64,000 nucleotides of DNA from a virus (IMGVR_UViG_3300037478_000708:1-64000); one strand, 5' to 3'. Numbered from the stretch's first letter, positions 26 through 57,232 are shown. A program made the numbers and translations. The notes: generated from the letters alone by a model not told the origin.

Positions 26-52
26 TGTCCAGTGACACGCTGTCACTGGACA
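26..52. repeat. Dispersed palindrome copy 1 (TGTCCAGTGACA-CGC-TGTCACTGGACA)
   Basis: Perfect 12-bp inverted arms with a 3-nt centre; the same core recurs 7 more times in the window. Confidence 0.95.
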
Positions 53-56
53 CGGC

Positions 57-88
57 TGTAGACGGGGCCCCTCGCCGCGTGGCAATCT
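57..88 (+). promoter_or_regulatory. Putative promoter TGTAGACG-N18-CAATCT upstream of the 147 ORF
   Basis: Same TGTAGAC -35-like box as the other promoters in the window; weaker -10. Confidence 0.45.
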
Positions 89-146
89 GCGTCGGTTCCA
101 GAGCCGATTTCGCCTCTGCCCGCAGATCACGCGACGAGGAGACGCG

Positions 147-2258
147 ATGTCCGAGAAGCCCATCTACCGCAAGTCCCTGTCCTCCGCCCGAAAGCTCGGT
201 GAAGCCTTCCGCCGCGTCACCCGGCCCCTGAAGGGCGTTCCCGGCCTGGCGGAGCGGATCGGGCAGCTCAGCCTGGACGATCTCCCCGAGGATGAGCAGC
301 GGCACCACACGGGCTACGTAGGGGCGATCCTCGAGTTCGCGGCTCAGCACGCGCAGGGCTACCGCACCGGCTACGTGTCGGGCTCGGACGACGAGGAGAA
401 GAACGTCAACCGCAACGACCTGCGGGCCTTCGCGCAGCACTTCCTGAGCAAGAAGCCGGAGTATTCGCGCTCCAAGAGCGGGCTCGCCGCGTCGCAGATG
501 GAAGCCTGGCTCGTGGAGGCCGGCGGCACGCTCTTCCAGCAGTTCGTCGAGACCGTCATCGAGCAGGGTACGCGTTTCCTGGCCGTGTTCGAGGGCAAGC
601 TCGACATGGAGGAGCTGCGCAAGCTGCGCTCCGCGACCGGGAGCTTCATGCGCTTCGAGACGCTCATCAAGGCCGGCGAGACCAACGGCGGGGAGATCTT
701 CGAGTTCACGGTTCTCGACTGCACGGCCGCGCCGACCAAGGAGCGCGACGTCTACCCGCAGCTCAAGGGGAACGATCCGTCCGTGAAGGACAAGAGCGAC
801 GACGTTCGCTTCTCCGGGATGGGTCCTGTGGAGTCGTTGCTCCCCTCGAACCGCGACGAGTACGACCGCGTGTACGAAGAGGGCGGGCTGCCGCGCGAGG
901 CGCTCCTCGCGATCGCGGGCGCGGACGTCTTCGACAACTGCGTCGAGGTCGACAAGAAGCAGTTCGTGAGCGATCCGAACGGCGTGGCCTGGACGTCGGA
1001 GGACGGTTACACGTGGCTCCCCGAAGTCGATCAGATCGACGAGGCGGGAGGCTACGAGGCGGACGACGACGAAGACGAGGTGGACGACTACGGCTACGAC
1101 AAGCCGGAACAGGAGCCGCGCAACTACCGCGAGGCCGAAGACTCGGCGCGCACCTGCTCCCGCTGTCGCTACTACCGGCACGAGGGCAGTGACATCGGCT
1201 ACTGTCACCTGTACGCGACGCCCGTCGAGCCGGCGTGGACGTGCGACTCGTGGGAGGCGCGGCAGGAGGGCCTGATCGAGTCCGCGGAGGACGCGGCCGT
1301 GCAGTCCGACTACGGGGCTTGGACCGTCGTGCAGGAAGCCGAGCAGGTGATCGTGACCGTGGGAGAACGTGCCTGGCTCGTTCCGCACGGCTACGAAGAG
1401 GTGGTCGAGGGCATCGCGAGCATCGGGGAGATGTATCCCGAGCTGCCGAGCGAGCGCGACGTCATGGTCGAGGCGTACCTGCGCGACTACGCCGAGGAAG
1501 CGGGCGTTCCCTGCGGACGGCCGGCGCTCACGGAAGACGTCGAGTGCCGCACGGACGAGCGGGACGCGATCGTCGAGGCGAACAATCAAGAACGGCTTCA
1601 GTCACGGGTGGGCGACGTCCGCGAGGAGGCCGAGGAGATCGTGCGGGAGACCTATCCGGACGTCGCCGAAGGAAGCGAGCAGTGGGACCAGCTCTGCGAA
1701 GGGCTCGCGCGGTCTCTCCGCCGCGAGCTGAGCGAGCGAGGAAAGGTGGTTCCGGCGCTGGCGTTCCCGGACGAAGAGCCGACGACGCGCAAAGGCGCGT
1801 TCAAGGTCTCGTCGAAGGCGCTGAGCATGTTCCGGGAGGCCGGTATCCTCTCGCGTCCGAGCGACGCCGTGTTCAAGAAGGTGCTCCGCGTCGTGGACGA
1901 GATCCCGCGGAACGAGCTGCCGAAGCTCTTCGGCGTGACCTCGCCGGGTGCCGCGGCGATCCCGGACGCACAAGACGTCCTGGCCCGACAGCCGCGCCGG
2001 GCCTTCCAGATGTTCCTGCGCAACGTGCAGCGCGTCTCCCCGCGACTGCATAAGGTGCTCCAGCAGATCGGTCAGGAAAACGCCTCGCTGATCTTCTACG
2101 CCATCACCGAGCGCCTGTCCGGCGAGGACATGGCGAACATCATCTTCCGCCGCTACTTCGCGACGCAATCCGACCATCACAAGGCCGTTCCCGTTCGGAA
2201 CATCGAGAGCGTCGAAGAGGCCGACGATGACGAGGAGGGGGACGGAAAAAAGCCGTAA
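147..2258 (+). CDS. Large acidic multi-module protein (short, 703-aa form); contains a CxxC-x10-C-x10-C HiPIP-like/Zn module at about 1120-1255; probable head-associated protein
   Basis: GAGGAG RBS, genome-typical codon usage, ESVEE linker at 2205-2219 like those of the giant ORFs. Confidence 0.8.
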   Translation: MSEKPIYRKSLSSARKLGEAFRRVTRPLKGVPGLAERIGQLSLDDLPEDEQRHHTGYVGAILEFAAQHAQGYRTGYVSGSDDEEKNVNRNDLRAFAQHFLSKKPEYSRSKSGLAASQMEAWLVEAGGTLFQQFVETVIEQGTRFLAVFEGKLDMEELRKLRSATGSFMRFETLIKAGETNGGEIFEFTVLDCTAAPTKERDVYPQLKGNDPSVKDKSDDVRFSGMGPVESLLPSNRDEYDRVYEEGGLPREALLAIAGADVFDNCVEVDKKQFVSDPNGVAWTSEDGYTWLPEVDQIDEAGGYEADDDEDEVDDYGYDKPEQEPRNYREAEDSARTCSRCRYYRHEGSDIGYCHLYATPVEPAWTCDSWEARQEGLIESAEDAAVQSDYGAWTVVQEAEQVIVTVGERAWLVPHGYEEVVEGIASIGEMYPELPSERDVMVEAYLRDYAEEAGVPCGRPALTEDVECRTDERDAIVEANNQERLQSRVGDVREEAEEIVRETYPDVAEGSEQWDQLCEGLARSLRRELSERGKVVPALAFPDEEPTTRKGAFKVSSKALSMFREAGILSRPSDAVFKKVLRVVDEIPRNELPKLFGVTSPGAAAIPDAQDVLARQPRRAFQMFLRNVQRVSPRLHKVLQQIGQENASLIFYAITERLSGEDMANIIFRRYFATQSDHHKAVPVRNIESVEEADDDEEGDGKKP

Positions 2259-3622
2259 GCCCCGACTCCGGGAAGAAGGGCAAGGAGTCGGGGCAGAAGG
2301 CTCCGGGTGACGACGAGGAAGAAGAGGACGACGAAGAGGCCGAGAAGAAGGACAAGGACGACGAGAAGGTCGACAAGGCCAAGAGCGGCGAGAAGGAAGG
2401 CGCGGTTCCCTCCGAGCCGGAGACCGACGATCGCATGGACGATCCGCCGTTCTACCGCGACGACGTACAGGCGTACTACGACATGCGCGTCGCGTCGGGT
2501 GACTCGCAACCCGAGGCCATGTCGAAGACGAAGCGGCACTTCAAGCTGCGCGCGCTGATCGTCACGCCGACCGGCGAAGTGCGCTCGCCGGGCGTGGTCG
2601 ACGATCCGAGCCCGCCCGAGACCGCCGCTCCGCCGCCGGAGGGGGGCGAGGAAGAGCCTCCGGAGGGTGAAGAGGGTCCGGACAAGGGGGACCCGGGTTC
2701 CCAGATTGGGGACGAGGACCCGCACGGGTCGGATCCCAAGAAGGGGAAAGAGGAGGCTGCGCTCGACGCGCGCTGGCTCGCGTTCCTCTCAGGCGAGTCG
2801 CCCGTCGACGCGTTCGAGGCCGAGGAGGCGTGGGAGGCGCCGGATCTCGAGGAGCATTGGCGGCCGGCGCACCTACCTAAGCGCAACCGTCGGGCACACG
2901 TCGCCGAGAACGTCACGCGCGAACAGGCGCGGCTGTACGAGAAGTTCCAGCGGCTCGTGAACATGCGGGCGGGTGAGCTGCGGGCGCACCTGCGCTCGGA
3001 TGCCCTCGCGGAGACCATCGCCGCCGCTCGTCGCCAGAAACGGGGGCCCCTCGTCGAGGGCAAACGCATGGCTCGCTACGTGCTGCTCATGAAGGCGACG
3101 CCCGTGCACGAGTGGACCGCCGAGCTGTGGGAGCAGTGCCGGCAGGTCGTGTCGTTCATCGAACGCACCCGCCGCAACAACACGCCGTTGCTCGACGAGA
3201 ACGGCCGCGCGACGCGGAAGCTCATGGCGCTCCGGACGTGGGGGCACAACCCGACGGTTCCGGCCTACGTCACGGAGGCGGAGATCGAGCCTCTGCTCGG
3301 GCACCGGCAGGTGCTTCACCGCTACATCGATGCGACCCCGGGCATCGGCCTGGTCGCGTTGATGGCCGAGCGCAAGGCTCCGGCATGGGACGCGCTCAAG
3401 AAGGGCAAGGTGTCTCTGACGGATGAGGAGCGTTCCGCGGTGCTGCAGCGCAAGGCGGTTTGGCATCATGGGCGCAATGGGGAGGAGACGCCTGCGGTGT
3501 GGAAGACGCAAGTCGGCGGCGAGACGTGGTTCGTCACGAACACGCATCGCCTGTACCAGGCGTCGCCGACCTTGGAAGGCGCGATAGGTCGTTACCATAA
3601 GGTCGTCAAGCAGACGGCCTGA
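147..3622 (+). CDS. Frameshift-extended product (~1158 aa) adding an acidic linker, a DUF3140-like domain (FQRLVNM..EL..LRTWGHNP) and a C-terminal phage domain (TNTHRLYQASPTLEGAI)
   Basis: The -1 frame from 2252 reads AVSPDSGKKGKESGQKAPGDDEEEEDD... with native codon usage into MDDPPFY (2435). Confidence 0.75.
2232..2294 (+). promoter_or_regulatory. -1 programmed ribosomal frameshift signal: SD-like GGAGG, slippery A_AAA_AAG (2246-2252), 6-nt spacer, 11-bp stem 2259-2269/2284-2294
   Basis: All three dnaX/IS3-type elements are present; the -1 frame is open and continues into ORF 2435..3622. Confidence 0.85.
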
Positions 3623-3646
3623 CCCAAGATGTTCGGAGAAAGCCAG

Positions 3647-3934: not shown

Positions 3935-4573
3935 ATGACGAAGACGAAGTACGACGAAGGTCGCGAGGCGTTCGCGGCCGGCACCGCGGCCGAGGGGAAC
4001 CCCTACGGCGGGGCGTCGAAGGCGCATAGCGAGTGGCTCCGCGGGTGGTCCGACGCGAGCCTCGAGGCCGAAGAGGGCGCTGCGCCCGCGGAGGCGCCCC
4101 CGGCGGCCGTCGAGCCCCTGGCGGAAGCGCCCCCGGCGGCCGTCGAGCCCCCGGTGGAAGAGCCCCCGGCGAAGCCGCTCGGTGAGGCCGGCTACGATCG
4201 CATCATGGAGCTGCTCGAGCACCCGCCTCTCGGGGATCTGCCCGACGGCGTGGTTCTCCCGCCCGATGGGGAGGTCCCCGAGGATCTCGCCGCGTGGCTC
4301 AAGGCGTGGAAGCAGCCGCTCGCGTTGCTCACCGTCGACACCGCGCTCCGGGCGGTGTCCTTCCGGATCAACGGTGCGTCCCGCGGTCGCCTGCGCGAGC
4401 TGTACCGGGGCATGTCTCCGGAACAGGTGTCGGCGGCCATGCAGGCGAACGCCGACGTGATCGCGGGGTTCGCCGATCAACGCGCCGCCGAGGCCGGGCT
4501 TCTCAACTCCATGCAGACGGCGCTCACGGAGAAGGCCGCGAGCTACCTGCTCACGGCCTTGTCGCTCGTCTGA
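3935..4573 (+). CDS. Hypothetical protein with N-terminal Rmf-like motif (YDEGREAF..G..NPY..EWLRGW) and a duplicated EAPPAAVEP
   Basis: Motif recognition; tandem near-duplicate at about 4091-4150. Confidence 0.55.
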   Translation: MTKTKYDEGREAFAAGTAAEGNPYGGASKAHSEWLRGWSDASLEAEEGAAPAEAPPAAVEPLAEAPPAAVEPPVEEPPAKPLGEAGYDRIMELLEHPPLGDLPDGVVLPPDGEVPEDLAAWLKAWKQPLALLTVDTALRAVSFRINGASRGRLRELYRGMSPEQVSAAMQANADVIAGFADQRAAEAGLLNSMQTALTEKAASYLLTALSLV

Positions 4574-7329: not shown

Positions 7330-7331
7330 GC

Positions 7332-7352
7332 CCAGTGACACGCTGTCACTGG
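7332..7352. repeat. Dispersed palindrome copy 2
   Basis: CCAGTGACA-CGC-TGTCACTGG, 4 nt before the HNH start codon. Confidence 0.95.
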
Positions 7353-7356
7353 ACGG

Positions 7357-7857
7357 ATGGACGCACCGAGCGAAACAGAGCGATGGAAGCCGATTCCCGA
7401 GTTCGAGGGGTTCTACGAGGCGTCCACGCTCGGCCGCATTCGCTCCGTGGAGCGCGCGCTTCGGATCCGCTCCAGGCACGGAACCTACTACACGCGCCGC
7501 TACCCCGGGTGCGTCATCAAGCCGTCGACGCGGGGCTATCGCGGGCAGTACCTCTTCGTCAACCTCCAGCGCGCGGGTCGGCAGTTCTCCGTGTCCGTGC
7601 ATCGCGCCGTGCTGCTTGCGCACGTCGGACCCCCGCCGTTTCCCGAGGCCGAGGTCTTGCACGGGCCGAATCACGACCCTGCGGACAATCGCCTCTGCAA
7701 CCTGCGCTGGGGTTCTCACGAGGAGAACAACGATGATCGGAACCGCGTCAATGGCTACGTCACCTACGCCGAGCTGCTCGCACGCGCTCGCGCCTCGGGA
7801 GAGGTGGGGGGCGGGTTCGAGAGCGATCTCTGTGAGGCGGAGAGCGTTCCGTTCTAG
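7357..7857 (+). CDS. NUMOD4-HNH homing endonuclease
   Basis: WKPIPEFEGFYEASTLGRIRS (NUMOD4); VHRAV...H.....DNRLCNLRWGSHEEN (HNH). Confidence 0.9.
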   Translation: MDAPSETERWKPIPEFEGFYEASTLGRIRSVERALRIRSRHGTYYTRRYPGCVIKPSTRGYRGQYLFVNLQRAGRQFSVSVHRAVLLAHVGPPPFPEAEVLHGPNHDPADNRLCNLRWGSHEENNDDRNRVNGYVTYAELLARARASGEVGGGFESDLCEAESVPF

Positions 7858-7860
7858 CCG

Positions 7861-8346
7861 ATGATCGTCATGGCCGGACTGCCCCGCTCGGGTAACCACG
7901 TCATCCGCGAGCATATCCTCCGCTGCATTCGCCGGTGGCGTGGGCTGGACGAGTCGAAGCCGCACGAGAAGGTCGCGATCTGGCACGGCACGCAGCAGCC
8001 TCCGCGCTTCGACGAGAAGCGCACGCGCTTCGTGATCCCTGTTCGCGACCGACGTTGGCAGCAAGCCTCGCTGCACGGCAAGCCGGAGCTGAAGCCCGCG
8101 CAGTTCCCGACCGACGGCTGCATCAAGGGCGTCATGCGCGCGGTGCTCGCGCTCAACGCGTCCGTCTACTACCTGAGCTACGAGGCGTTCGTCGCGGATC
8201 CCAACGGGGTGACGCAGGATCTCATGCGCTGGCTCGGCTACCCGTGGGTGCCCTTCCCCGAAGGTCCGGCCAGCCCGCTGCTTCCGCATAGCGGACCCCC
8301 GTTCGACGGCAACGAGAAGTACCGGTGCGCCGCACCCCAAAAGTAG
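7861..8346 (+). CDS. Sulfotransferase-like P-loop protein (copy A)
   Basis: GLPRSG PAPS-binding-like loop; LSYEAFVADP..LMRWLG C-terminal pattern. Confidence 0.55.
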   Translation: MIVMAGLPRSGNHVIREHILRCIRRWRGLDESKPHEKVAIWHGTQQPPRFDEKRTRFVIPVRDRRWQQASLHGKPELKPAQFPTDGCIKGVMRAVLALNASVYYLSYEAFVADPNGVTQDLMRWLGYPWVPFPEGPASPLLPHSGPPFDGNEKYRCAAPQK

Positions 8347-8748: not shown

Positions 8749-11630
8749 GTGAACAGGTTGCCTTCGATCAGGCCCTCGGATGTCTCCGAGGGGATGTACA
8801 GTGGCGAGTGCGCGAGCTGCCAGGCCAACTGCATCGGCTACGGTCGGCTGGGACGCCTGACGTTGTGCGCGGACTGCAAGCGCCTGGCGCCATTCGTGCG
8901 CACGGTGCGCGATGAGACCGGTGCGAAGGTCGGAGCGCGGTACGTTTCGCAGGACGAGTTGCTCGACAAGCTGTTCGACGCGGGTGTGCGGAGGGCCCGG
9001 TCATGACCAAGGTGTTCGTTTACCGGCCGAGTTCCGGACGCGAGGACTGCGCGGCCGTCGTCTATGACGAGGAGGGCAACGTGCTCGGCGCGCACATCTC
9101 TTCGTCGCTGGAGTGGGCTCGGCATGACGTGGCCCGTTTCATCCCCGAAGGGGCGGAGGCCGTGTGGTGCATCGGTCGGGCGGCCTTGGAGGCGCGGATC
9201 GAAGCGGGTGAGCTGCGCAACCTGTCCTTTGCGGAGCAGGGGGACTGCCGGGGGCCGTCGTGACGCCTGGACCGATCTCCGACTCCTATCCGGGTCCGCC
9301 GGACCCCACCGAGACGCTCAACTGCGCCTTCTGCGGCTTTCAGTACAGCGGCCCCAAGCCCGTCTCCAGGGACGTCCTTGCGGCGCACGTCAGGGTGTGC
9401 CCCGAACACCCGCTTGCTCAAGAGCTGGCGGAGTTGCGTGAACAGCTCACCTGCCCGATCTGCGCGGGGCAGCCGCACGCGTCCCTCTTGCCGTGTGCCT
9501 GCAAGGGTACGAACAAGATCACCGAAGCCTTCGCGTACGTGCATCGCGAGTGGGGCCGGCTGGCGGCTGCGGAGAACGTCAGGCGGCAACTGGGAGAGCA
9601 GTGATGTTTTCCGGCTTCGTTTCATCCGTCCGACCTTCGGTGGGGTAGGGTTACCAAGTGAAGTTGAATCCCGAGGAAGACGCGACTCTCGCCGCGCGCA
9701 GCGCGCCGATTCTGGAGCGACTCCGAGCGGCCCTGGAGTGGATGACCTCCGCCGATTCCGACTGGGAAGACGGCGAGGTCGGCGTCGGTCACGGGTTTCG
9801 TGTCCGAGCCCACGAGGCGGTGGAGCACCTGCGCGCGCTCGACGTGCTTCTCAGAGGGAAGGATTTCCCTGAGCTGTTGCGTCGTCTGGTCGTTTGTCCG
9901 GAGTGCTCCCGCGAAGCGGGTCCCGGTGTTTCAGTGAGCTACGAGCCTCCGGGTTGCTTGACGCATGGAGGAGCAGACGTGGCGCTGCACTGTCTCCTGC
10001 GCGCGGACTGGTCGACTCCGTGGGAGTGCTCCAATGCGCTTCACAAGCCCGTGCCTGTGACCGGCACCCCTTCGGAGGGGTGGTTCTGCGGCCTCTGCTG
10101 GTCCGATTGGCAGGATCCGGAACTCGGCATCGCGTCGATTACGATGGAGGCTCGGCTCAAGGCGTACGCTCGCCGCGCGTTGGCGAAGCACACAACGCTC
10201 GCCGTGGAGGCGGAGCGGGCGCGTGCAGCGCAGCACACCGCGGGTCGCGCCCTGATCGCAGCGTGCGAGGTCGACCTCGACACCCGTCGCTGTCGGCCGG
10301 AGACGCTGCTCGCGCTCAACCTCGCTCGTCAAGCGTTTCCCGAGATCCGTCCGGCTGAACGTGACGTCTACGATCCCGACGCCGCGTTACGCGTGGCCTC
10401 TGCCTCGTGGTGAGCGACGCTATCCACCCCCCGCTGAACCACAACTTGACTCCACAACAAACGAAGGAACGTTAGATGAAAGCACTTCTCACCGCGGCAC
10501 TGCTCGCGTTCGCCAGCCCCGCGCAACCCCCGAGGGACAACGAGGCCCTGCCCCCGGTCCTGATCCTGTCGGTGCCGGGTGAGCCCGGCTTCGAGCCCGG
10601 TACGACGGCCGAGGTCGGCGATCTCTTCGTGGACCGGGATGGCTTCGTTCAGATGGTCTTCGTGTCCGCTCCGCACGTCGGCATCGAGCTGGGCTGCTGG
10701 TACAGCGAGCACGACTGGTTCGGCTACGGAACCGGCGGCGACTGGGGTCCGTACGCGGTCGATTACGTCCTGTACTCGCCCCTGCTCCGCTCGTGGATCC
10801 GGCAAGTCCTGGCGGGCGCCGGGCAGTCCACCACACCCGACTGCCGCTAGGGAGGCGTCAGGGCGATGAGTGAGGCGGACCTGGCAGATCTGCGCAAGGC
10901 GGCTGAGATCTGCGCAGAGCACGACAAGGACGCGCTGACCGTCCACGGCCGTACGGTGCTCGCGCTGTTCGCGGAGCGCGACGAACTGGCCGAGCGGCTG
11001 CGTGGATGGGGCGACGCGAAGGATCAACTGGCCGCTGCGGATTCGGGCCGGGTTGCGCTCGTCGCCGGTCGTGCGGCGATTCTGTCGGCGCTGGAGGCAG
11101 CGCGGGATCAAGCGCACGCCGACGCTGAAGCCTCTTCCGCTACGGGTATCGATCCGTCTCAATGGACCCGGGTCGAGAAGGCGTGCGTCTCGGCCCTTTC
11201 CGCGCTCGAAGCGACCACGGATGCGGTGAGCCCCGCTGAGGCGGTGCGGGAGCAGGTCGAGCGGCTGGAGCGGTGGCTCCTCGATCGCGTGGCCGAAGGT
11301 CGGCGACTCGTCGAGAGCGCGTCGATGCGATACGTGAACGGCGGGCGGGAGGTTGACCTCGAGAAGCTCGTGCAGGAGGGCGGCAAGCTCCGCGGCTACA
11401 AGGAAGTCGCGGACTACATACGGCGGCACGTCACGGTGACCGTTCAGACGGTTGCCGCGCGACACCCTCCGCCGCACCATCTCTATCTCGTGTGGCGCAA
11501 GGGTCGCGAGTTCACGGCGACCCCGTGCTACGGCATGCACGCGCCGCGGTGGGTCGTTCGGAAGTCGGATGGAACCGAGGATCCCCCCATCGCGATGGAG
11601 GATACGGATCGCTGGAGACCGGTGACGTGA
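8749..11630 (+). CDS. Cluster of small hypothetical proteins (8749-9006, 9003-9263, 9260-9604, 9658-10413, 10476-10850 with signal peptide, 10866-11630); several CxxC motifs
   Basis: Chained ATGA/GTGA overlaps; codon usage. Confidence 0.6.
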
Positions 11631-11926
11631 AGACGGACCGAGAGATCGTGCGGCTCTACCGCAGCGGCCTGTCGCTCGAGCGGATCGGTCGGCGTGTCGG
11701 GAAGGACCACTCCTGGGTCTGGCGCCGTCTCAAGGCGTTGGGCGAGCCCCGGCGCTCGCACAAGGAGGCCCTCCGTGGGCTGCCTCGGGTCCGTCGCCCC
11801 GACGTCACCGTGGAGGGTGTGCGGCGACTGCGTGAGCGCGGCTGGAGTGTTCGGAAGATCGCGGAGCACTTCGACGCGTCCTACCGCACCGTGTACAAGC
11901 GACTGGAGGCGTGTGATGCGAGCTAG
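11627..11926 (+). CDS. Tandem helix-turn-helix protein
   Basis: LYRSGLSLERIGRRVG..WVWRRL and LRERGWSVRKIAEHFDASYRTVYKRL. Confidence 0.75.
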   Translation: MKTDREIVRLYRSGLSLERIGRRVGKDHSWVWRRLKALGEPRRSHKEALRGLPRVRRPDVTVEGVRRLRERGWSVRKIAEHFDASYRTVYKRLEACDAS

Positions 11927-19605: not shown

Positions 19606-19632
19606 TGTCCAGTGACACGCTGTCACTGGACA
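19606..19632. repeat. Dispersed palindrome copy 3
   Basis: Identical 27-mer to copy 1; intergenic before 19658. Confidence 0.95.
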
Positions 19633-25081: not shown

Positions 25082-25105
25082 ACGCGGGAGTCCAAGCTCC
25101 TCCGC

Positions 25106-25126
25106 CCGGTGACAGCGTGTCACTGG
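25106..25126. repeat. Dispersed palindrome copy 4 (inverted, centre GCG)
   Basis: CCGGTGACA-GCG-TGTCACTGG between the promoter and ATG 25146. Confidence 0.9.
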
Positions 25127-25145
25127 CACGACCCCGCCGAGCCCA

Positions 25146-32090: not shown

Positions 32091-32092
32091 AG

Positions 32093-38000: not shown

Positions 38001-39811
38001 GGAAGACCACGCATTCGGACGGCAGCCCGTTCTACGGGATCTTCGTTTTCCCGAACAAGGCGAAGCGCGACCAGAAGATCCGTGAGCTTTTGAAGCAGGG
38101 CTACGAAGAGGTCAGCTCTGCGGTTCACGAGACCACGACCTCCGGCACGGTCGGCGGCTACCGCCGCGGCAAGCTCGAGCAGCCCGAGAACAAGGGCCGC
38201 ACGGGCGGCATCCGCGACGACGGCCCCGGCAAGAAGGGACCGCGTTCGGTGTGGTCGCCCGACGCCATCGCCAAGGTGCTCGAGCAGATGCGCGAGGCTC
38301 TGCCCGGCCACTCCGACGAAGAGCTGCTCGAGCTGCTCGACGAGGCCCCCGAGGAAGGCGCCCGGAAGGACGTCACCGTCTTCGGGGACGGCAAGGGCAA
38401 GTGGTTCGTGGCGGATCCCTTCGGCAAGCAGGAGCGCTACGCCACGAAGACAGAGGCCGTCCAGGCTGGTCGGGATCTCGCGCAGCACGAGAACTGGGGC
38501 TTCGTGGTCAGCGACCCCGACGTCACCCTCGCGAGCGAGTCGATCGACGAGGCTCCCGAAGACCTCCGCGAGATCGATCCCGTCGACACCATCCAGCGGG
38601 GAGACAAGGTGACGATCCTGATCCCGGCCGGGCTCGGCAGGCAGGGGCAGGAGTGGAAGCCCAAGGCGGGCAAGGCCGTCATGCGCGGTCCGCACGGGTG
38701 GGTCCTCAACATGGGCGGTGCCCACGGAACGCCCGGCGTCGCCTCCTCGCGCAACATCGTGAAGGTGCAGCGCGGCGGGAAGACGCTCTACCACAACCCC
38801 CGTCCGGATGTGCTCGGCGAGTCCGTGGACGAGGCGGGTGCGGACAACCGGCGTCCGGTGAAGCTCGGGCCGATCGAGAAAGAGCTGCTCATGCAGCTCC
38901 GCGAAGAGCGCGGCAAGCACGGCATCGAAGAGCTGATCGCCGCGAGCCCGATGCTCAAGAAGCTCCCGTATCAGGACGTGCTCGTCGCCGCGCAGAATCT
39001 CGCGACGCTCGGTCTCATCGGCGGCAACGGCCGCGGGATCGTCCTGCCCTTCGGCGAGTCCGAAGACGCGGGTCTCGACGAGGCGTCCGTGCCGGTCAAG
39101 GGTCACGACACGGTGACGGAGGTCGGCTTCGCCCGCGGCACGTACTACTACGTCTCCAAGAGCGGTCTCAAGAACTCGGTCGCGGTCAAGCGCAAGGACC
39201 GTGCATCCGCCCGCGAGCGGTTCCGGCAGATGCTCCGCAACGAGGCGAACGTCAAGGACGCCGACGCGCTCATCAAGCAGATCGACGCCAAGCTCGGCGA
39301 GTCCCGCCAGTGGGCGCGCTACGAGGTGCAGCTCGACGAAGAGTTCTTCGATCGCTACGACGCGCTTGGCATCGAGCGGCCCGATCCGAAGACGATGTGC
39401 CACGGTCAGTGCGAAGGCACCGGCTGGGTGCCGATCGGGCCTCCCGAAGGCCGCGTGCCGGAAGGCCGTCTGTTCTGCCCCGCCGACAACGAGGAGCCGT
39501 GGCGTACGCTCTGGCTCGAGGCGGAAGAGAAGGATCCGACCGACGATGGGTACCACATCGTCAAGTGCCCCGACTGCGAGGGCACGGGCAAAGATCAGGG
39601 CGACGCCTCTCACGGCGAGCGCCGCCGAGCGCAGAAGACGGAACGCACCACGATCGAGTTCCCCGAGTCCGCCCTGGAGACGTACGTACTCGCCGCGCAG
39701 GCCGCGGGGCTCGCGGAGGACGATCCGTGCTTCGTCTTCGAGGACGGCCGCTTCACCGCGGAGCTGCCCGCCGACGTGGCCCCGCGCATCATGGAACTCG
39801 TCGCTCAGTGA
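32093..39811 (+). CDS. Giant modular protein 2 (~2572 aa), putative head-packaged polyprotein: two Zn ribbons, SH3/KOW-like modules, winged helix, DUF2188-like module, C-terminal CxxxC/CxxC module
   Basis: ATG 2 nt after the stop of ORF1; at least 9 exact ES[VLI][DE]E linkers plus many variants. Confidence 0.85.
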   Translation: MPKNIQGLTGEIVTYMMRGRRTPSDLRTHFRLSVKTAQHVYDLEPDAFGPSGRGRQWYHTQVGALLKAPDAFEAEIPATPHRSSLNEVAAGALRASVSPLAEHELSEGIADTHQVKIATRTLQLSAMGAKIMGGMDHAGAVKVLRANGWPDTKIKAALKKHGHADPDVKKWLGESSDTLSLDEARPEPIKVPETVYKEKLAKLSSKDKEALRNVTMASRGDHRLFKPLDADGAALIKRLFGEVTETHVGRGPQKRESAAEGAGVGSPSRTGSHAIVEGVLRVNDRIRERELLGEAGGAGQEAPKDPKWGTPYGLPMLHPSGTAIRMRRKGQRVRFFDLNGKQVGPEHANVAPAVAWAMSKGFVTESVDEAGKPLKVKCGQCGNVFATNKDYPKCPKCGSKDVDLPESVDEAASKTVLGKYKQKTVTLRDYGDGDVDILVGSLAVPLDTAKKKGIAPPKNPRDLAQVSAFLDKALPILFPAKAGFSIESVDEASGTTVRAAVRLDWLKGATAGVTPDEKVVVFRSSDYDNKGTVSGSYAVLGRSSQRDLFSSLHLEWNSGFTLDRGQHAQNRKRAEQAFKKLPTSEANDDKTDDLPAKAEADLKAKAKEMGAIKVSGKGPSVNATFDDKKKAQAFLAHAEKVGKAAMRRSGDEEYTVHIDESVERYAGAKMVGGSGAVPFSALKVGAQFRFPKSDEINTKTSEAGSYKTANGRKFKTGKHAAVIPAKSDESLDEAAGTIVRTFSSGYVALRLPSGITVLARDTGDGEPIAHANVAQAKKGLARFLSANPSVNARVRDAKRPFYILVEDVSESLDEAAPKKSKGHIAFLGDFEYLIVGTDLARAPISNVMDVRTGNRLARFEATKAAADTAMKIAFQAFGKPVDPKAMQRMRKLLGESLEEDIDEDVRPGQMFVVVDVSVRGGKMIGEIYTGAARADAAASKLKARGQNVQVIDALWYEPARQKLIKSGLVGEDAEPRVLALGDGRYAVDLGEGEALVKIVDTLEEAIDEAGRLAVKCMECGKKFKTASMLPDCPKCGGSDIEPDYDAPSAKKSYAAGRTRKRSVGHESIIEGAVPKVGDRVALSRDHLRGTGNQTGTLPQLRGTVTAVSGAGIATVDWGRGVKSPRVNVKNLVVLGKGDSLPVESADEGLAPLEVTVTDVFDNGAWCHPRYTVNVRTNNNEDYTFGMFEPGTEPAALQTVEDFPNFTNFIKGAARPGEYMERVEVAALPDVLRTQLQTLLARADTYDRTMEFDEAADESAIRSFDVMAQMRWEETLKPGAKVMVYWTAGSFGHYQGKATVKSLNKSSVTVTLDHDVPDRSRLGGAGYAKGKKINVPRVMANYGRNTWSMGFNAVHPLGGPQAFMEGAVDEFTSAAVPSVGNLHPWAHPYGSEVELMDEPDELDDEQLDARGNIEPIDEAIQPTVAGFRMFVVGALTQWDKQQEVRASKKPGGSHSPYALSLYLEALHRGEKSSTMRGVKPDSMDPEDLRKFAKMLGEQFFSDMPPIRKTLKAIDAYLASGKAPKYPGSSSRSLRSESRDETARLAKGLVYTAVAAAEDGRLTEAVAKLRAAGETLDEDALEGLLPEDVVEALNEWADENDVDDAIVEGYAVALRLGLDDHVYGLDEATSAAKLLDTADSKLISELRKGLVKVGAAAKEAKRGQAEMEKRLGVGKSTAKDQLKIVVKELEAYRTLLDQIIKQAQVAESVDEDLAEAGSLHDALLNHFVRNRGRSYTASEIARLFSASTAESMKTLSSLVNEGTLMFRRGEGYSLRGNSSALRIPASLHGSRVGNFVNQRTEEAELDEVRNSGRPTNWRGSGEAGRDALQARGSAKTKARFQVTQLVAKSGTTPAVLADVSKLSTSMPALKYRGKPGESYDIVYKGRVIGTLRSSGSGSLPWTVKRKDGTKLSDVGFGSVHHAVTRALADALGDAWGNAEESADGLGEGLGRKVFYTRDGVGSSKYTVNYHDGKTTHSDGSPFYGIFVFPNKAKRDQKIRELLKQGYEEVSSAVHETTTSGTVGGYRRGKLEQPENKGRTGGIRDDGPGKKGPRSVWSPDAIAKVLEQMREALPGHSDEELLELLDEAPEEGARKDVTVFGDGKGKWFVADPFGKQERYATKTEAVQAGRDLAQHENWGFVVSDPDVTLASESIDEAPEDLREIDPVDTIQRGDKVTILIPAGLGRQGQEWKPKAGKAVMRGPHGWVLNMGGAHGTPGVASSRNIVKVQRGGKTLYHNPRPDVLGESVDEAGADNRRPVKLGPIEKELLMQLREERGKHGIEELIAASPMLKKLPYQDVLVAAQNLATLGLIGGNGRGIVLPFGESEDAGLDEASVPVKGHDTVTEVGFARGTYYYVSKSGLKNSVAVKRKDRASARERFRQMLRNEANVKDADALIKQIDAKLGESRQWARYEVQLDEEFFDRYDALGIERPDPKTMCHGQCEGTGWVPIGPPEGRVPEGRLFCPADNEEPWRTLWLEAEEKDPTDDGYHIVKCPDCEGTGKDQGDASHGERRRAQKTERTTIEFPESALETYVLAAQAAGLAEDDPCFVFEDGRFTAELPADVAPRIMELVAQ
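32614..32638. repeat. Dispersed palindrome copy 5, in frame inside a polyprotein linker (ES-SDTLS-LDE)
   Basis: GTCCAGTGACA-CGC-TGTCACTGGAC. Confidence 0.95.
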
Positions 39812-39825
39812 CACGCTGTCACCGG
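39806..39825. repeat. Dispersed palindrome copy 6; supplies the TGA stop of giant ORF2
   Basis: CAGTGACA-CGC-TGTCACCGG. Confidence 0.9.
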
Positions 39826-39835
39826 TTGACCCGGG

Positions 39836-43422: not shown

Positions 43423-43632
43423 CGCCACGTAGACCCTCCACGCGCTGCGGGCGTTTTCAAGCGGGAAAGCTGTAGACATTGCGCTGCTACCTCTGCAAAA
43501 AGGGCATTGCGGGAGGCGAACCCCGCGTGACGCACAAGGCACCCGTCAACGGCCGGCTGCTGCCGAAGACATCGCATGCTGCGTGCGTCGCGGCTGCGCG
43601 GAAGCGTGGGTACGTCCGACCGCGGACGACCC

Positions 43633-44859
43633 GTGGCAAAAGCTAAGAAGCGCAAGACCGAGAAGTACGCACGCGTGACGATCGAGCGGCACGCGCTCGA
43701 GAGCATCGTCGACGCCGGCTACAACCCCCGGCTCATCTCGCAGGAGGCGCTCGACGGCCTGTCGCAGAGCCTCGTCGACCTCGGTCTCCTGACGCACCTC
43801 GTCGTCAACCGAACGCGCGAGGGCCTCGTGCTGGTCGGGGGACATCAGCGCCGCCGGATCCTGCGCGAGTCCGGCGTGACCGAGGTCGACTGCATCGTGG
43901 TCGAGTTCGACCCCGACCGCGAGAAGCACGCGAACTACAGCCTCAACAACCGCGAGATCCAAGGCGAGTTTGTTCCGGAGCTGCTCAAGTCCGTGCTACA
44001 GCGGATCCGGGAGAGCGTCGGAGACGACCACAAGAAGCTCTTCGCGCGCCTGCGGTTCGACTCGCTCTACCGCTCCGTCCTGCGCCAGCTCGCTCACGTC
44101 GAGCCGAAGGCGAAGGGCAGCGTGACGCGCGGCAAGGTGCGCGACGACGACATCCCGAACCTGTCGCGCACGCGAGCGGTCTCCGAGGACGGGCAGCTCT
44201 ACGCGCTCGGCGACCATCGGCTCTACTGCGGCAAGGTGACGCAGCCGGGGAGCTTGACGGTGTTCGACGTCGAGCGCGCGGACATGGGCTTCCTGCGACT
44301 CTGCCAGGACGATCCTTTCACGTCCGAGTTTCTGGAGGTCGTGCTCGGGCACCAACTTCAAAACACGGAGGGGGTGGTCTACGTCGCGGGTCACTTCGAT
44401 TCGATCGCCGACGTGCAGGGTGCCTTCGAGGCGATGGGCGGGCACTGGAGCAACACGCTCATGTTCTTCCCGAAGGAGGCGAAAGGTCGACGCGACGATC
44501 CCTATCGCGACGTCGTGGTTCCGGTGCTCTACGGCTGGCGGGAAGGCTCCGATCACGGCTTCTACGGCGGGCGTCGACAGGCGAACGTGGCGCACCTCGA
44601 GGGGCTTCCACCGAAGACCGACGTCGCCGTCGAGATCGTGCAGCTCGCGATGGAGAACAGCTCGCGGCCGGGAGACGTCGTGCTCGACGCGATGCTCGCT
44701 CACGGCGCAACCCTGATTGCCGCCGAGAAGCTCGGTCGCAAGCTCATCGGCTACGTGCACTCGGCGCGCGAAATGGATCGCATCCGTCACCGGTGGACGC
44801 GGTTCGTGCACGGCCCGCGCGCTGACTGGCGCAAGAAAACCACGGAGGTACCGACTTGA
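43633..44859 (+). CDS. ParB-N domain fused to a degenerate (probably inactive) DNA methyltransferase
   Basis: YNPR..VGGHQR (ParB); DPPY replaced by RLCQ; FxGxG replaced by MLAHG. Confidence 0.75.
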   Translation: MAKAKKRKTEKYARVTIERHALESIVDAGYNPRLISQEALDGLSQSLVDLGLLTHLVVNRTREGLVLVGGHQRRRILRESGVTEVDCIVVEFDPDREKHANYSLNNREIQGEFVPELLKSVLQRIRESVGDDHKKLFARLRFDSLYRSVLRQLAHVEPKAKGSVTRGKVRDDDIPNLSRTRAVSEDGQLYALGDHRLYCGKVTQPGSLTVFDVERADMGFLRLCQDDPFTSEFLEVVLGHQLQNTEGVVYVAGHFDSIADVQGAFEAMGGHWSNTLMFFPKEAKGRRDDPYRDVVVPVLYGWREGSDHGFYGGRRQANVAHLEGLPPKTDVAVEIVQLAMENSSRPGDVVLDAMLAHGATLIAAEKLGRKLIGYVHSAREMDRIRHRWTRFVHGPRADWRKKTTEVPT

Positions 44860-47324: not shown

Positions 47325-48569
47325 ATGCCGGCGCAGATCAGGACGGAGTTGGAGGTCGCGAAGCTCGATCTCCGCAGACTTGAGTTCGCGGCCTACAACC
47401 CGCGGACCATCTCCGCCGAAGCGCGGCGGGGTCTGCACGAGTCGCTGGAGTCGCTCGGCCTGCTCGAGCTGCCCATCGTCAACGTGCGCCACGACCCTCC
47501 CAGGATCGTCAGCGGGCACCAACGGGTACGGGAGCTACTCGACGCCGGCTACACGCACTCGGACGGCGTTGTCGTGCGCATGGATGACACGGCCGAGATG
47601 GTCGCGAACGTCGCGCTCAACAACCACGCCGCGCAGGGCACGTTCGACCCGGTGCGCGCGCTCGCGAACGTCGAGAGGGTTGCGAAGACCTTGCCTCGCC
47701 CCGACTACACGCGCTTCGAGCAGCTCAGCCAGAAGCTCCGCGAGCAGGCGCGTAGGGCGCAGGCCAGCTCGAACCCGCGGGCCGAAGACGCCGTGTCCGA
47801 AGAAGCGGAGGCGGCTGACTCGGAGATCGGGCAGGTCTACTACCTCGGCGAGAGCGTGCTCTACTGCGGTGACTACCGAGACGGGCTCGCGGCCATTCTC
47901 AAGCGCAAGAAGGTCGACGTCGCGATCACCGATCCGCCGTACAACATCGCCTACACGAGCGGGAAATGGTTTCGCAACGACAAGCTGCGCGAAGAGATCG
48001 AAGGGGATGAGCAGGATCCCGCTGCTTGGACGGAGTTCGTGCGGGACTTCTGCGCGGCGCTCCTGAAAACGGTCAAGGGTGCGATCTACCTGTTCACGGC
48101 TGCGCAGGAGATGCACGAGGTTCAATCCGCCTTCGTGGAAGCCGGCGGAGACGTGCACCGCTGGATCGTGTGCGCGAAGGACGCGCATCCGCTGTCGCCG
48201 AGCGACTACCACCCGCAGTACGAACTCGTGCTCTACGGAGGTCGCGCGCGCACGGAGGTCGCCTACTTCGGGAAGGCGAAGACGAACGTCGTGCCCACGA
48301 AACGTCCGACCAAGAACGAGCTGCACCCGGCGCAGAAGCCGGTGAAGCTCATTCGCGAGTTCGTCGAAGACTGCACCGACGTCGGTGACACGATCCTCGA
48401 CCTCTTCGCGGGCTCGGGCACCGTGCTCTGCGTGGCCGCAGAGCTAGAGCGCATCTGCTACTCCTGCGAGATCGACCCGGCGAACTGCGACAAGATCCGG
48501 AGGCGCTGGACCGAGCAGGTGCACGGGAAGGGAGCGGACTGGCGAAACCTGACGCAGGTGAAAGTGTGA
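47325..48569 (+). CDS. ParB-N domain fused to a DNA methyltransferase with intact motifs
   Basis: YNPR..VSGHQR; TDPPY; HPAQKP; DLFAGSG. Confidence 0.9.
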   Translation: MPAQIRTELEVAKLDLRRLEFAAYNPRTISAEARRGLHESLESLGLLELPIVNVRHDPPRIVSGHQRVRELLDAGYTHSDGVVVRMDDTAEMVANVALNNHAAQGTFDPVRALANVERVAKTLPRPDYTRFEQLSQKLREQARRAQASSNPRAEDAVSEEAEAADSEIGQVYYLGESVLYCGDYRDGLAAILKRKKVDVAITDPPYNIAYTSGKWFRNDKLREEIEGDEQDPAAWTEFVRDFCAALLKTVKGAIYLFTAAQEMHEVQSAFVEAGGDVHRWIVCAKDAHPLSPSDYHPQYELVLYGGRARTEVAYFGKAKTNVVPTKRPTKNELHPAQKPVKLIREFVEDCTDVGDTILDLFAGSGTVLCVAAELERICYSCEIDPANCDKIRRRWTEQVHGKGADWRNLTQVKV

Positions 48570-49042
48570 TCCTCGTCAGCGGACTCCCTTCCAGCGGCAA
48601 TCGGCTGATCGCGGAGCACATCAAGCGCGGCGTTGCGGCAGCGCGCTCCGAGGAGTTCGTGCAGATCTGGCACGGGGATAACGAAGCTCCGAACGTCACG
48701 CGGCCGGAGGGAGAGCGTTTGGCCGTCGTCATGCCCGTGCGCGGTGAGTCGTTTCGGCTGCGCTCCGTCGACGAGCGCCTGCGCAGAGGTGAGGGGGTCC
48801 TGCCGAGCGACGTCGCGCAGATGCGCGCCAATCTCGTCCGGTTTCTCAGTTGGAACGACTGCCCTGTCTACGTGCTCAGCCTGGAGGGGCTCGCGCAGAG
48901 TCCGGAGGCCGAAGGGCGTCTTCTCTTCACGTATCTCCGGCTGCCTTGGGTACCCTGGCCAGCCGCGTTCTCTTCGGATCCGCGCAGGCCCGAGCTAGGG
49001 CGGGTCTACGATCCGAACCGACGCTACGGCCCCGTCCAGTGA
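48566..49042 (+). CDS. Sulfotransferase-like P-loop protein (copy B, paralog of 7861)
   Basis: GLPSSGN..EHI..IWHG..PVR..WVPWP shared with copy A. Confidence 0.55.
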   Translation: MILVSGLPSSGNRLIAEHIKRGVAAARSEEFVQIWHGDNEAPNVTRPEGERLAVVMPVRGESFRLRSVDERLRRGEGVLPSDVAQMRANLVRFLSWNDCPVYVLSLEGLAQSPEAEGRLLFTYLRLPWVPWPAAFSSDPRRPELGRVYDPNRRYGPVQ

Positions 49043-49058
49043 CAGCGTGTCACTGGAC
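49034..49058. repeat. Dispersed palindrome copy 7 (inverted), spanning a stop codon and abutting the next ATG
   Basis: GTCCAGTGACA-GCG-TGTCACTGGAC. Confidence 0.95.
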
Positions 49059-55774: not shown

Positions 55775-55785
55775 GTCGTGATGTG

Positions 55786-55846
55786 ACGCCCCTTCGGGGG
55801 GAGGGGTGTTTCAATGCGGGGCCGTCTTCCTTCGGGAGGGCGGCCC
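55786..55846 (+). terminator. Tandem hairpins after the MCP, including a cUUCGg stem at 55819-55846
   Basis: GC-rich stems between convergent genes. Confidence 0.55.
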
Positions 55847-55855
55847 CGGTCGCGT

Positions 55856-56074
55856 CTAGCAGAGGTCTCGGAACGACGCGTCGCGCAGGGCCGTTACGTA
55901 CTTCGCGGTCGTCTGCCACGATCGCAGGCAGGTCAGGCAACGCACGCGCGAGCGCCGCGTCAGCGCCGTGCGGCCCTCGGGCGTGAAGCCGCGGTTCCGC
56001 TGCACGACGACCCAGCGCCGCTCTCGGACGGGTTTCTTGCGCTCGAAGCACCCGCAGTAGGTTCCACGTTTCAT
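55856..56074 (-). CDS. Small Cys-containing hypothetical protein
   Basis: CGC..CLTC; fills the gap on the minus strand. Confidence 0.5.
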   Translation of the reverse strand: MKRGTYCGCFERKKPVRERRWVVVQRNRGFTPEGRTALTRRSRVRCLTCLRSWQTTAKYVTALRDASFRDLC

Positions 56075-56147
56075 TGCAGCGTCGCTTCAGCCGGATTCTA
56101 CATAGTGCACAACTCAACCGAGCGCGTGCAGGGCGGTCGGGCGAGCC

Positions 56148-56176
56148 TTGACGGTCTCTCCGCACCGGTCTAGCGT
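56148..56176 (+). promoter_or_regulatory. Sigma70-like promoter TTGACG-N17-TAGCGT, probably leaderless
   Basis: ATG 56183 lies 7 nt after the -10 box. Confidence 0.6.
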
Positions 56177-56182
56177 GGTGCG

Positions 56183-56359
56183 ATGAAGATCGAGGTGATC
56201 TTCCGCAACGAGACGTCTTGCGACGAGCATGGCTTCGCGCGTCAAGCCTTGTCGCTCCTCGAGCGCATCGCGACGGCGATCGAATCTTTGGCTCCGCCGA
56301 CGGAGCGCGTTCCCACTACGCTGGCCGTAACGTACGGCCCACCTGAACCCGAGGAGTAA
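56183..56359 (+). CDS. 58-aa hypothetical protein (absent from the ORF track)
   Basis: MKIEVIFRNE..PEPEE; its end supplies the GAGGAG RBS of the next gene. Confidence 0.55.
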   Translation: MKIEVIFRNETSCDEHGFARQALSLLERIATAIESLAPPTERVPTTLAVTYGPPEPEE

Positions 56360-56365
56360 CTACAC

Positions 56366-56716
56366 ATGGCCGAACCCATCACCATGACTTCCGCTCAGCG
56401 TGTCCCGGTCGGACTCACGATCTTGGACGCCGGGGGCGAGAAGTTTCAGACGAAGGCCGACCTGCCCGAGGGCACCGTCATCACGTTCGAGTCCTCGAAC
56501 CCGAACGTCGTCGGCATCGAAGAGTTGCCGAGCGGCCTGAACGCCTGGCTGACGAGCGATGACGTCGGCACGTCGAGCATCACGGTCCGCGCGCTCAAGC
56601 CGGACGGCACCGACATGCCGGGTTCCCCCGACGTGACCGAGGTCACCGTCCAGCACGCGGACCCCGACAGCCTGAACGTGACGTTCGGTGCGCCCGAGGA
56701 CGAGGTGGTCGCTTAG
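56366..56716 (+). CDS. Ig-like (Big-type) domain protein
   Basis: ITFESSNPNVV..GTSSITV..EVTV pattern. Confidence 0.6.
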   Translation: MAEPITMTSAQRVPVGLTILDAGGEKFQTKADLPEGTVITFESSNPNVVGIEELPSGLNAWLTSDDVGTSSITVRALKPDGTDMPGSPDVTEVTVQHADPDSLNVTFGAPEDEVVA

Positions 56717-56810
56717 CCCGAAGCTAAGTTCGAGCACGCGTGGCGGGGCGGGCGTTCCGTGCGTCCGCCCCTCGTCTGTTTCAACCACTTTAGGAAAGCG
56801 CGGCCGTCTC

Positions 56811-56963
56811 ATGGGACTGATCCTTCTCATCCTCCTGATCGTCCTCTTGCTCGGCGCCGTCCCTCGTTGGCCTCATAGCCGGCAGTGGGGCTACGCTCCG
56901 AGCGGAGTGCTGACGCTCCTGCTCGTGATCGTCCTGATCCTGTTCCTGCTCGGGTACGTCTGA
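56811..56963 (+). CDS. DUF3309-like small membrane protein
   Basis: LLLGAVPRWPHSRQWGYAPSG signature. Confidence 0.8.
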   Translation: MGLILLILLIVLLLGAVPRWPHSRQWGYAPSGVLTLLLVIVLILFLLGYV

Positions 56964-56975
56964 CCTTCGCGCGGA

Positions 56976-57203
56976 TCATCGCAGGTGCGGAGGGAGCCAA
57001 CGAGGGATGCCCTTCCCCTCGAGGCAGGGTGGGCAGTCCATGTGGATCCAGTACAGGTCGGGTTGGTTGAACCACTCGCCGCAGGTGAGACAGCGCCTCG
57101 GTTGCGGGCGCTCCGTGCGCGGCAGCTCAAGTGCGGGCTTGCGCTTCTTCGCGACCTTGCGAGCAGGCTTCTTGTAGGCGCTGCGCTTCTTGGCGGGGCT
57201 CAT
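56976..57203 (-). CDS. Small basic Zn-finger protein
   Basis: K-rich N-terminus; CLTC..CPPC. Confidence 0.5.
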   Translation of the reverse strand: MSPAKKRSAYKKPARKVAKKRKPALELPRTERPQPRRCLTCGEWFNQPDLYWIHMDCPPCLEGKGIPRWLPPHLR

Positions 57204-57211
57204 GTCGCTGT

Positions 57212-57232
57212 CCAGTGACACGCTGTCACTGG
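57212..57232. repeat. Dispersed palindrome copy 8
   Basis: CCAGTGACA-CGC-TGTCACTGG between divergent genes. Confidence 0.95.

Follow-up and report, generated by a model that had tools for sequence, protein, structure and literature searches.

Evenly spaced, position-conserved palindromes in the genome of an uncultured T4-type myovirus, and an orphan ParB as their candidate reader

The DNA analysed here, referred to as the window, is the first 64 kb (64,000 nucleotides) of the IMG/VR virus record IMGVR_UViG_3300037478_000708 (G000; 156,008 bp, 66.7% GC, rated complete), and our subject is a family of 25-bp palindromes dispersed along it. G000 is an uncultured myovirus whose baseplate, tail-tube and capsid genes are of T4 type and which encodes a module for replication and recombination (DnaB, polymerase, RecA/UvsX, 5'-3' exonuclease and Mre11/Rad50-like genes). 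Its genes, called from the GC content of third codon positions (GC3), are nearly all co-directional, on the + strand. A megablast comparison of 20 kb of the window with cultured phages gives no match, and no isolate has a major capsid protein more than 32% identical to that of G000. In a relative, G018, the homologue of g155542 is followed by that of g147, which joins both ends of the G000 record. The record is therefore circularly permuted, and the first palindrome (core at 32) is an ordinary internal site.

The palindrome was sought in the window as the 21-mer CCAGTGACA-NNN-TGTCACTGG, with up to two mismatches, and in 100 dinucleotide-preserving shuffles. Eight 21-mers are found, starting at 29, 7332, 19609, 25106, 32616, 39805, 49036 and 57212, and none in any of the 100 shuffles. 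Six of them are exact, one has one mismatch and one has two. All eight copies listed in the original prediction are present, at coordinates that differ by 0–3 nt as 21- or 27-bp versions had been counted there. All eight have an exact 15-bp core, GTGACA-NNN-TGTCAC (0.07 expected). Over the full genome, the invariant core GTGACA-CGC-TGTCAC has 17 exact copies, eight of them in the window, with no match to the reversed pattern as control. Allowing up to three mismatches adds one match, at chance level, and no copy has one or two mismatches. The family is all-or-none, with perfect copies and no degenerate ones. The aligned copies show symmetric conservation across 25 bp, G-Y-C-C-A-GTGACA-CGC-TGTCAC-T-G-G-R-C, and nothing outside. 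As each site holds about 35 bits of information, no host genome should contain the motif.

The three-nucleotide centre, read on the + strand, is CGC in ten of the 17 copies and GCG in the other seven; there is no other centre. In the window the numbers are six and two, in agreement with the earlier description of both orientations and a conserved centre. As almost all genes are on the + strand, the orientation of the palindrome is not fixed relative to the genes. The copies in the window are listed in Table 1, with the open reading frames (ORFs) around them.

Table 1. Palindrome copies in the window and two methyltransferase genes considered as binders. Positions count from the first letter of the window; distances to TGTAGAC boxes are edge to edge.
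Feature	Position	Core	Centre (+ strand)	Gene strand	Neighbouring features or domains
Copy 1	27-51	32-46	CGC		7 nt upstream of TGTAGAC box; upstream of gene 147-2258
Copy 2	7330-7354	7335-7349	CGC		ends 7 nt before ATG of HNH endonuclease gene 7357-7857
Copy 3	19607-19631	19612-19626	CGC		stretch with weak, ambiguous coding signal
Copy 4	25104-25128	25109-25123	GCG		48 nt downstream of TGTAGAC box; 22 nt upstream of ATG of 2314-aa ORF
Copy 5	32614-32638	32619-32633	CGC		in frame, inside 2572-aa ORF 32093-39811
Copy 6	39803-39827	39808-39822	CGC		overlaps TGA stop of 2572-aa ORF; 10 nt upstream of TGTAGAC box
Copy 7	49034-49058	49039-49053	GCG		overlaps stop of ORF 48566-49042; ATG 5 nt past core
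Copy 8	57210-57234	57215-57229	CGC		42 nt upstream of TGTAGAC box for gene 57355-58170; putative minus-strand start 11 nt to the left
ParB_N + N6/N4 DNA methyltransferase fusion	43576-44859			+	PF02195; no helix-turn-helix (HTH)
N6/N4 DNA methyltransferase, weak ParB_N-like N-terminus	47325-48569			+	PF02195; no HTH

The gaps between the 17 copies have a mean of 9.2 kb, a minimum of 2.8 kb and a maximum of 16.9 kb. Their coefficient of variation (CV) is 0.40, compared to 0.92 for random placement of 17 copies over the whole genome (P ~8e-5). A CV of 0.40 is reached by none of 100,000 random sets confined to intergenic bases, and by none of 20,000 sets that keep the intergenic-to-coding split and are drawn from the real intergenic regions. 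The fairly regular spacing first described for the window thus extends over the whole genome and is far more even than random. Non-coding DNA makes up 12% of G000 and holds 14 of the 17 copies.

The exact core is also found in G001, a 16.7-kb contig with proteins 26–51% identical to those of G000 (37–51% for the genes that flank the site). It lies there between the tail-tube and baseplate genes, which is the place of copy 9, and is flipped relative to the genes. Further relatives were found with the tail-tube protein as the probe. They carry a different palindrome at the tail-tube/baseplate junction, and each such palindrome is itself a dispersed family. CTGGAC-N5-GTCCAG has 7, 3 and 5 copies in G004, G005 and G018 (protein identity to G000 60–85%). 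TTGACA-N3-TGTCAA, together with the looser T[GA]AC[AG]-N3-[TC]GT[CT]A, has 21, 33, 45 and 4 copies in G008, G013, G014 and G015, where reversed-sequence controls for the looser pattern give 0–2. The register GAC-N5-GTC is common to all variants of the site.

The mean site interval, 9 kb in G000, is 2–4 kb in the relatives. In 96–143 kb of sequence, the CV of the gaps is 0.53 in G013, 0.52 in G014 and 0.60 in G008, more even than random (conditioned P 1e-4, below 5e-5 and 0.014, respectively). Eleven consecutive sites in the first 28 kb of G014 (2361-27620) are near-periodic, with gaps of 1.9–3.0 kb.

The positions of the sites persist in the relatives while their sequence is replaced in concert. 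In G004 and G018, the closest relatives (about 146 kb together), 12 sites match the places of G000 copies 1, 2, 4–7, 9, 11, 12 and 14–16, and only the core GAC-N5-GTC is common to the two palindromes. The counterpart of copy 1 is G018's own palindrome, between the g155542 and g147 homologues, and that of copy 2 is a G018 site directly before the g7861 homologue. Copy 4 corresponds to a G004 site at 1028, in the matching region, and copy 7 to one at 25611, at the syntenic junction.

One copy had been placed inside a coding sequence. The 21-mer at 32616-32636 is indeed in frame in the 2572-aa ORF and encodes the linker E-S-S-D-T-L-S-L-D-E-A. G004 has two sites inside its giant ORFs, so that the 14-kb giant-ORF pair is interrupted by in-frame sites in both genomes, at different places. 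In-frame sites are predicted if the length of a gap is limited, and would not be predicted for a signal at operon boundaries. The giant ORFs of G000 are at 25146-32090 (2314 aa) and 32093-39811 (2572 aa). The first has a Zeta-toxin/AAA_33 kinase-like domain (residues 722–874), and the second has a HypA-like zinc ribbon along with weak, sub-threshold matches to DUF7130 and DUF2188.

Two observations concern more distant genomes. G011 (155 kb, 38% GC, complete) has its own dispersed inverted repeat of about 45 bp, GTCAAGGGGTA...TACCCCTTGAC, in about nine whole or half copies that are often located just before genes (for example at 13661, 26625, 62673, 119576, 138352 and 149225). In other distant relatives, GTCAA runs about 10 nt apart are found 3' of the tail-tube homologue, just before the ribosome-binding site of the baseplate gene.

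Around the sites, conservation in a gene-oriented alignment stops within ±5 nt of the core, and only the palindrome and its immediate symmetric flanks are kept. Such alignments of G000, G013, G014 and G008 show no second conserved element at a constant distance to either side, and a search for other enriched intergenic 7-mers turned up only GTGA stop/start overlaps. The distance from a site to the next start codon ranges from a few nucleotides to kilobases, and at least one third of the sites in the relatives are intragenic. As RNA, the unit folds at -12.6 to -18.8 kcal/mol in G000, whereas the homologous sites in G013, G014 and G008 reach only 0 to -5.9 kcal/mol. The palindrome is not a composite promoter, is not tied to gene starts and is not a conserved RNA hairpin. 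The lack of a fixed partner, the lack of a tie to gene starts and the weak hairpins in the relatives together argue for recognition as double-stranded DNA by a symmetric protein.

The lattice thus very probably consists of sites at which a protein binds double-stranded DNA and has a role in genome coverage. Several features suggest a genome-wide or structural role: the sites are evenly spaced and free in orientation, some copies lie in the giant ORFs of G000 and G004, and there is no fixed distance to promoters or starts. The original prediction had also read the element as a dyad for a dimeric protein, had preferred a structural role over an operator and had looked to the ParB family. This much is supported, and the binders that it named within the window are not.

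The best candidate is encoded outside the window. A search of the genome with PF02195 gives three proteins, one of them at 132,092-133,399, with PF02195 scores of 57.4 and 54.7 bits (cut-off 26.3) and a TIGR00180 score of 67 bits (cut-off 58.45). Its N-terminal tail of about 85 residues is disordered and rich in lysine, and is followed by ParB_N, an HTH and a predicted helical C-terminal domain. The CTP-binding motifs are IAGERRLEAA (GERR) and AIAENSEDGRSNL (ENxxxxR), and Gly167, Arg169, Arg170, Glu206, Asn207 and Arg212 are invariant among 26 orthologues. With phmmer, residues 134–319 align to Spo0J (1vz0) and Noc (7ng0). The AlphaFold model has a pLDDT score (predicted value of the local distance difference test) above 90 over residues 110–320, and a Foldseek search with it finds CTP-bound ParB, Noc, Spo0J and KorB with E values of 5e-9 to 3e-7. 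The template-modelling (TM) score with KorB (8qa9) is 0.73 on the target. A three-helix C-terminal domain is confidently predicted for residues 346–434, with no match made to a known ParB C-terminal domain, and PF23552 is absent from the precomputed Pfam lists of the orthologues. Sequence and model together identify the protein as a putative member of the ParB/Spo0J/Noc/KorB-type CTPase clamp family, with predicted CTPase and clamp function.

The orthologues form a distinct family (138–308 bits, versus at most 70 for cellular ParBs). A tblastn search of 50,697 phage records gives only domain-level matches, at about 35% identity or less, and no cultured orthologue. No ParA is found in G000 with PF13614, which matched all 14 genomes of a positive control, and none of the 26 ParB orthologues has the ParA-binding motif [LFI]G[KR]G[LFI]. 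A ParABS partition system was rejected on these two grounds. No plasmid-type partition locus was seen in G000, where lysogeny genes were not searched for systematically.

The parB gene belongs to a conserved RecA / 5'-3' exonuclease / Mre11-Rad50-like module. An orthologue is located in the matching module in G013, G014, G015 and G018, all of which have lattices. Copy 16 starts 65 bp after the parB stop codon in G000, and a site follows the stop of the G018 orthologue by about 70–90 bp, at the same junction. G013, G014 and G015 each have a site no more than about 250 bp from the 5' end of parB. About 30 other proteins were scanned, including those checked for being conserved in the relatives, and none shows a convincing sequence-specific DNA-binding domain. 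A 21-kb locus, G019, encodes a tandem pair of paralogues of the phage ParB (9071-11185).

We infer that the palindromes are high-affinity docking sites on double-stranded DNA for a dimeric phage protein, for which the orphan ParB is the likeliest choice, at about an even chance; the link between the two is circumstantial. The ParB dimer would recognize the 25-bp dyad G-Y-CCA-GTGACA-CGC-TGTCAC-TGG-R-C through its two HTH domains, bind CTP and close into a ring through its N-terminal domains. The closed clamp would then slide off the site, freeing the palindrome for further dimers. With a loading site per 9 kb on average (2–4 kb in the relatives) and no gap above 17 kb, the whole chromosome would be within reach of a clamp. 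Moreover, the disordered 85-residue N-terminal tail, rich in lysines, may add non-specific contacts with DNA. The grid could serve to organize or compact replicating DNA, to mark self, or to silence or activate distant promoters as KorB and BisD do.

Several points weigh against the ParB as the reader. The distant, complete G011 has an orthologue (26% identity, with GHRR in place of GERR) and no such palindrome family, and no recognizable family is found in G017 and G019, 20-kb loci with ParB orthologues. The presumed recognition-helix residues do not track the type of site in a simple manner, among only five lineages. The site, at 25 bp, exceeds parS (16 bp) and OB (13 bp) in length, and a symmetric dimer does not account for the invariant, non-palindromic centre CGC. 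In addition, the scan for DNA-binding domains covered about two thirds of the proteome, and conserved proteins such as g120710, g142877 and g149244 could be the true reader.

The binders proposed earlier fare less well. The two ParB-methyltransferases (Table 1) have no HTH and are not supported as readers. ParB_N-methyltransferase fusions are reported to be typical of phages (PMC12704722). The ParB module suggested for the polyprotein was not detected in either giant ORF, and G013, which is 98% complete and retains the lattice, lacks a homologue of the tandem-HTH protein (11627-11926). The resemblance to matS in the GTGAC/GTCAC arms is superficial: the arms are 5 bp apart here rather than 3, and no MatP is encoded. 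A matS/MatP system was rejected: the 13-bp GTGACRNYGTCAC site is not matched and a PF06303 search of G000 gives nothing. The methyltransferases may still have a part in an extension of the clamp model, which we regard as rather doubtful. ParB clamps that coat the whole phage chromosome would carry or license the two enzymes by engaging their N-domains, so that only phage DNA would be processively modified or sequestered as self in lytic infection. A phage ParB that is devoid of a DNA-binding domain and activates a DNA dioxygenase has been described (bioRxiv 10.1101/2025.08.14.668559).

Among the alternatives, the one that survives best makes the sites operators of another dimeric phage regulator, a global repressor or activator or a stoperator-like roadblock protein, that controls transcription units. 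The strong enrichment between genes is consistent with it, and so is the proximity to a set of TGTAGAC boxes, present on the + strand at 57, 25051, 39836, 43471, 50815, 52364, 57275 and 62806 in the window and at 81268 and 89487 beyond it. Most are followed 17–19 nt on by TAnnCT (the last one is ambiguous), and all ten are upstream of + strand genes, mostly structural, whereas all 11 minus-strand matches are intragenic. By sequence, they appear to be a promoter family with a -35-like box that is unlike TTGACA. A palindrome lies within 50 bp of five of the ten TGTAGAC-N18-TAnnCT promoters, and the earlier observation that four copies in the window are near such boxes (copies 1, 4, 6 and 8) is borne out. 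Several sites are 5–22 nt ahead of start codons in G000, G013 and G014, and the left half TTGACA in G014 at times coincides with a plausible -35 box. On the other hand, the heterogeneous distances to promoters and starts and the intragenic sites of the relatives do not fit operators, and the even spacing and the sites in giant ORFs would not be expected of them. In Cluster A mycobacteriophages, one short repressor site, the stoperator, recurs many times along the genome, mostly between genes. Stoperators are asymmetric and oriented with transcription, whereas the sites of G000 are palindromes at even intervals and without a fixed orientation. Nor was another conserved HTH protein found to act as the regulator, the one at 11627 being absent from G013. 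We consider operators unlikely.

A second alternative is a promoter-type element for a phage-specific transcription or sigma factor, with evenness keeping the genes within reach of a start site. Five G000 copies end 5–11 nt ahead of an ATG, which could give leaderless transcripts; about a quarter of the G013 sites are 11–22 nt before a Shine-Dalgarno sequence and ATG, some G014 sites directly follow terminators, and the genes are co-directional. A perfect palindrome has no direction, however, and no second conserved element at a fixed distance is seen in the four genomes aligned. Three copies are followed by a separate, complete promoter within 7–15 nt, and many sites are remote from any start codon. 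These points make this alternative improbable. A sigma-70 -35 reading was rejected for G000, as no TAnnnT is at the right distance past GTGACA.

We find it no more persuasive that the sites are targets of an interval-acting DNA enzyme (a site-specific nickase, an enzyme that initiates recombination or replication, or a topoisomerase) that would set regular nicks, origins or domain barriers. Even spacing would suit such an enzyme, parB is located among recombination and replication genes, the core holds GAC-N5-GTC, and phages with motif-linked nicks are known (PMC11780129). Nick motifs are normally strand-specific rather than palindromic, however, GAC-N5-GTC itself is not enriched beyond the 17 copies, and no site-linked nuclease is found; the lone HNH gene next to a site is an insertion that is absent from G018.

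It is very improbable that the copies form hairpins in RNA or single-stranded DNA and act as terminators, processing sites or stabilizers, kept alike through gene conversion. The fold of the G000 unit would allow it, several copies directly follow stop codons, with two in the window overlapping them as first noted (those of ORF 31952-39811 and ORF 48566-49042), and a palindrome is found 3' of the tail-tube gene in many relatives. However, no T-run follows the palindrome at any G000 copy, so an intrinsic terminator would have no U-tract, and the fold is weak at the homologous sites. In addition, the sequence itself is conserved, beyond pairing, intragenic in-frame copies exist, and real terminators precede some G014 sites rather than coincide with them.

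A host origin of the repeat was also examined. The invariant 19-mer CRGTGACACGCTGTCACYG is matched only once each by 39 contigs from unrelated bacterial taxa, out of 185,579 species genomes, and by 41 metagenomic contigs, numbers close to chance expectation. The host repeat, a repetitive extragenic palindromic (REP) or miniature inverted-repeat transposable element (MITE), that the original prediction had feared is not found. In IMG/VR the 19-mer is present in two contigs besides G000, one of which is the true relative G001. G002, an unrelated phage of 66 kb that has terminal repeats, carries a single perfect 27-bp palindrome (32227-32241), GCTGCAGTGACACGCTGTCACTGCAGC, with a 19-bp core and centre identical to those of G000, and has no ParB orthologue. 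A selfish or host-derived REP/MITE-like repeat that is functionless for the phage is hardly credible: the copies are identical and mostly intergenic, but the shared part is only 25 bp with no flanking element, the 19-mer matches in bacteria are at chance level, positions are kept across relatives with 40–70% protein identity, and the evenness speaks against random insertion.

Some neighbouring genes deserve mention. The gene at 7357-7857 encodes a NUMOD4 + HNH_3 homing endonuclease and lies between copy 2 and gene 7861-8346. As the G018 site immediately precedes the homologue of the latter gene, with no HNH gene there, the endonuclease is a recent insertion. A link of the palindrome to homing endonucleases was rejected, with only one copy adjoining an HNH gene and the G018 site kept without it. 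Genes 7861-8346 and 48566-49042 are paralogues that both match the same gene in G004, G005 and G018. Each adjoins a palindrome, and this also holds for the homologues in the relatives. Pfam gives nothing convincing for either, with only a weak, sub-threshold match to Sulfotransfer_3 for 7861-8346. The 212-aa protein at 3935-4573 has an N-terminus similar to ribosome modulation factor (26.4 bits with PF04957, slightly below the cut-off of 27.9), and its neighbour at 2435-3622 (395 aa) has a DUF3140 domain.

The nearest working model for a clamp on such sites is KorB of the IncP-1 plasmid RK2, a ParB-family clamp at a short palindrome (OB, core TTTAGCGGCTAAA). OB sites are scattered around RK2, some adjoining promoters and some far off, and no test of whether they are evenly spaced is known to us. 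KorB binds CTP, loads at OB palindromes and slides to distant promoters (PMC11790492), and BisD of the integrative and conjugative element (ICE) ICEclc is another case of long-distance action (PMC12409273). In contrast to the phage, in which no ParA is found, RK2 KorB has IncC (a ParA) and the clamp-locking proteins KorA and TrbA. RK2 is a plasmid, whereas the replicon here is a lytic-type T4-like phage with 25-bp sites that are significantly even.

The linear plasmid-prophage N15 also has several inverted-repeat sites for a ParB-family protein, and these are dispersed. The centromere sites IR1–IR4 are bound by SopB (PMC7205306). N15 has SopA, is a low-copy plasmid prophage that needs partition, and has four sites and no lattice. 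Noc of Bacillus, among the best sequence and fold matches of the phage ParB, is likewise an orphan ParB paralogue without ParA that spreads from many dispersed palindromes, the Noc-binding sites (NBS). These mark the bacterial chromosome for nucleoid occlusion, however, and Noc has a membrane-targeting helix where the phage protein has the lysine-rich disordered tail. Chromosomal ParB-parS has the same order of CTPase N-domain and HTH, followed by a C-terminal domain such as is predicted for the phage protein, the GERR motif and a palindrome near parB. In comparison, parS clusters near the origin and works with ParA, whereas the phage sites tile the whole genome. Enterobacterial matS, with its GTGAC/GTCAC arms, is also the dispersed site of an organizer. 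What is new in the phage is the ParA-less, lytic-type setting, the even tiling, the intragenic sites and the concerted switch of sequence between close relatives. A literature search found no paper that describes such a lattice.

ParB clamps are known for the segregation of chromosomes and plasmids and, lately, for long-range gene control on plasmids and ICEs. Sites that are even, conserved in position and switched in concert, in a genome without ParA, point to another use, the coverage of an entire viral chromosome. If the orphan ParB is the reader, the spacing of 2, 4 or 9 kb by lineage may report the travel range of the clamp. The phages would then offer a natural system for studying how specificity is switched without losing a whole set of sites, and what a phage gains by coating its DNA.

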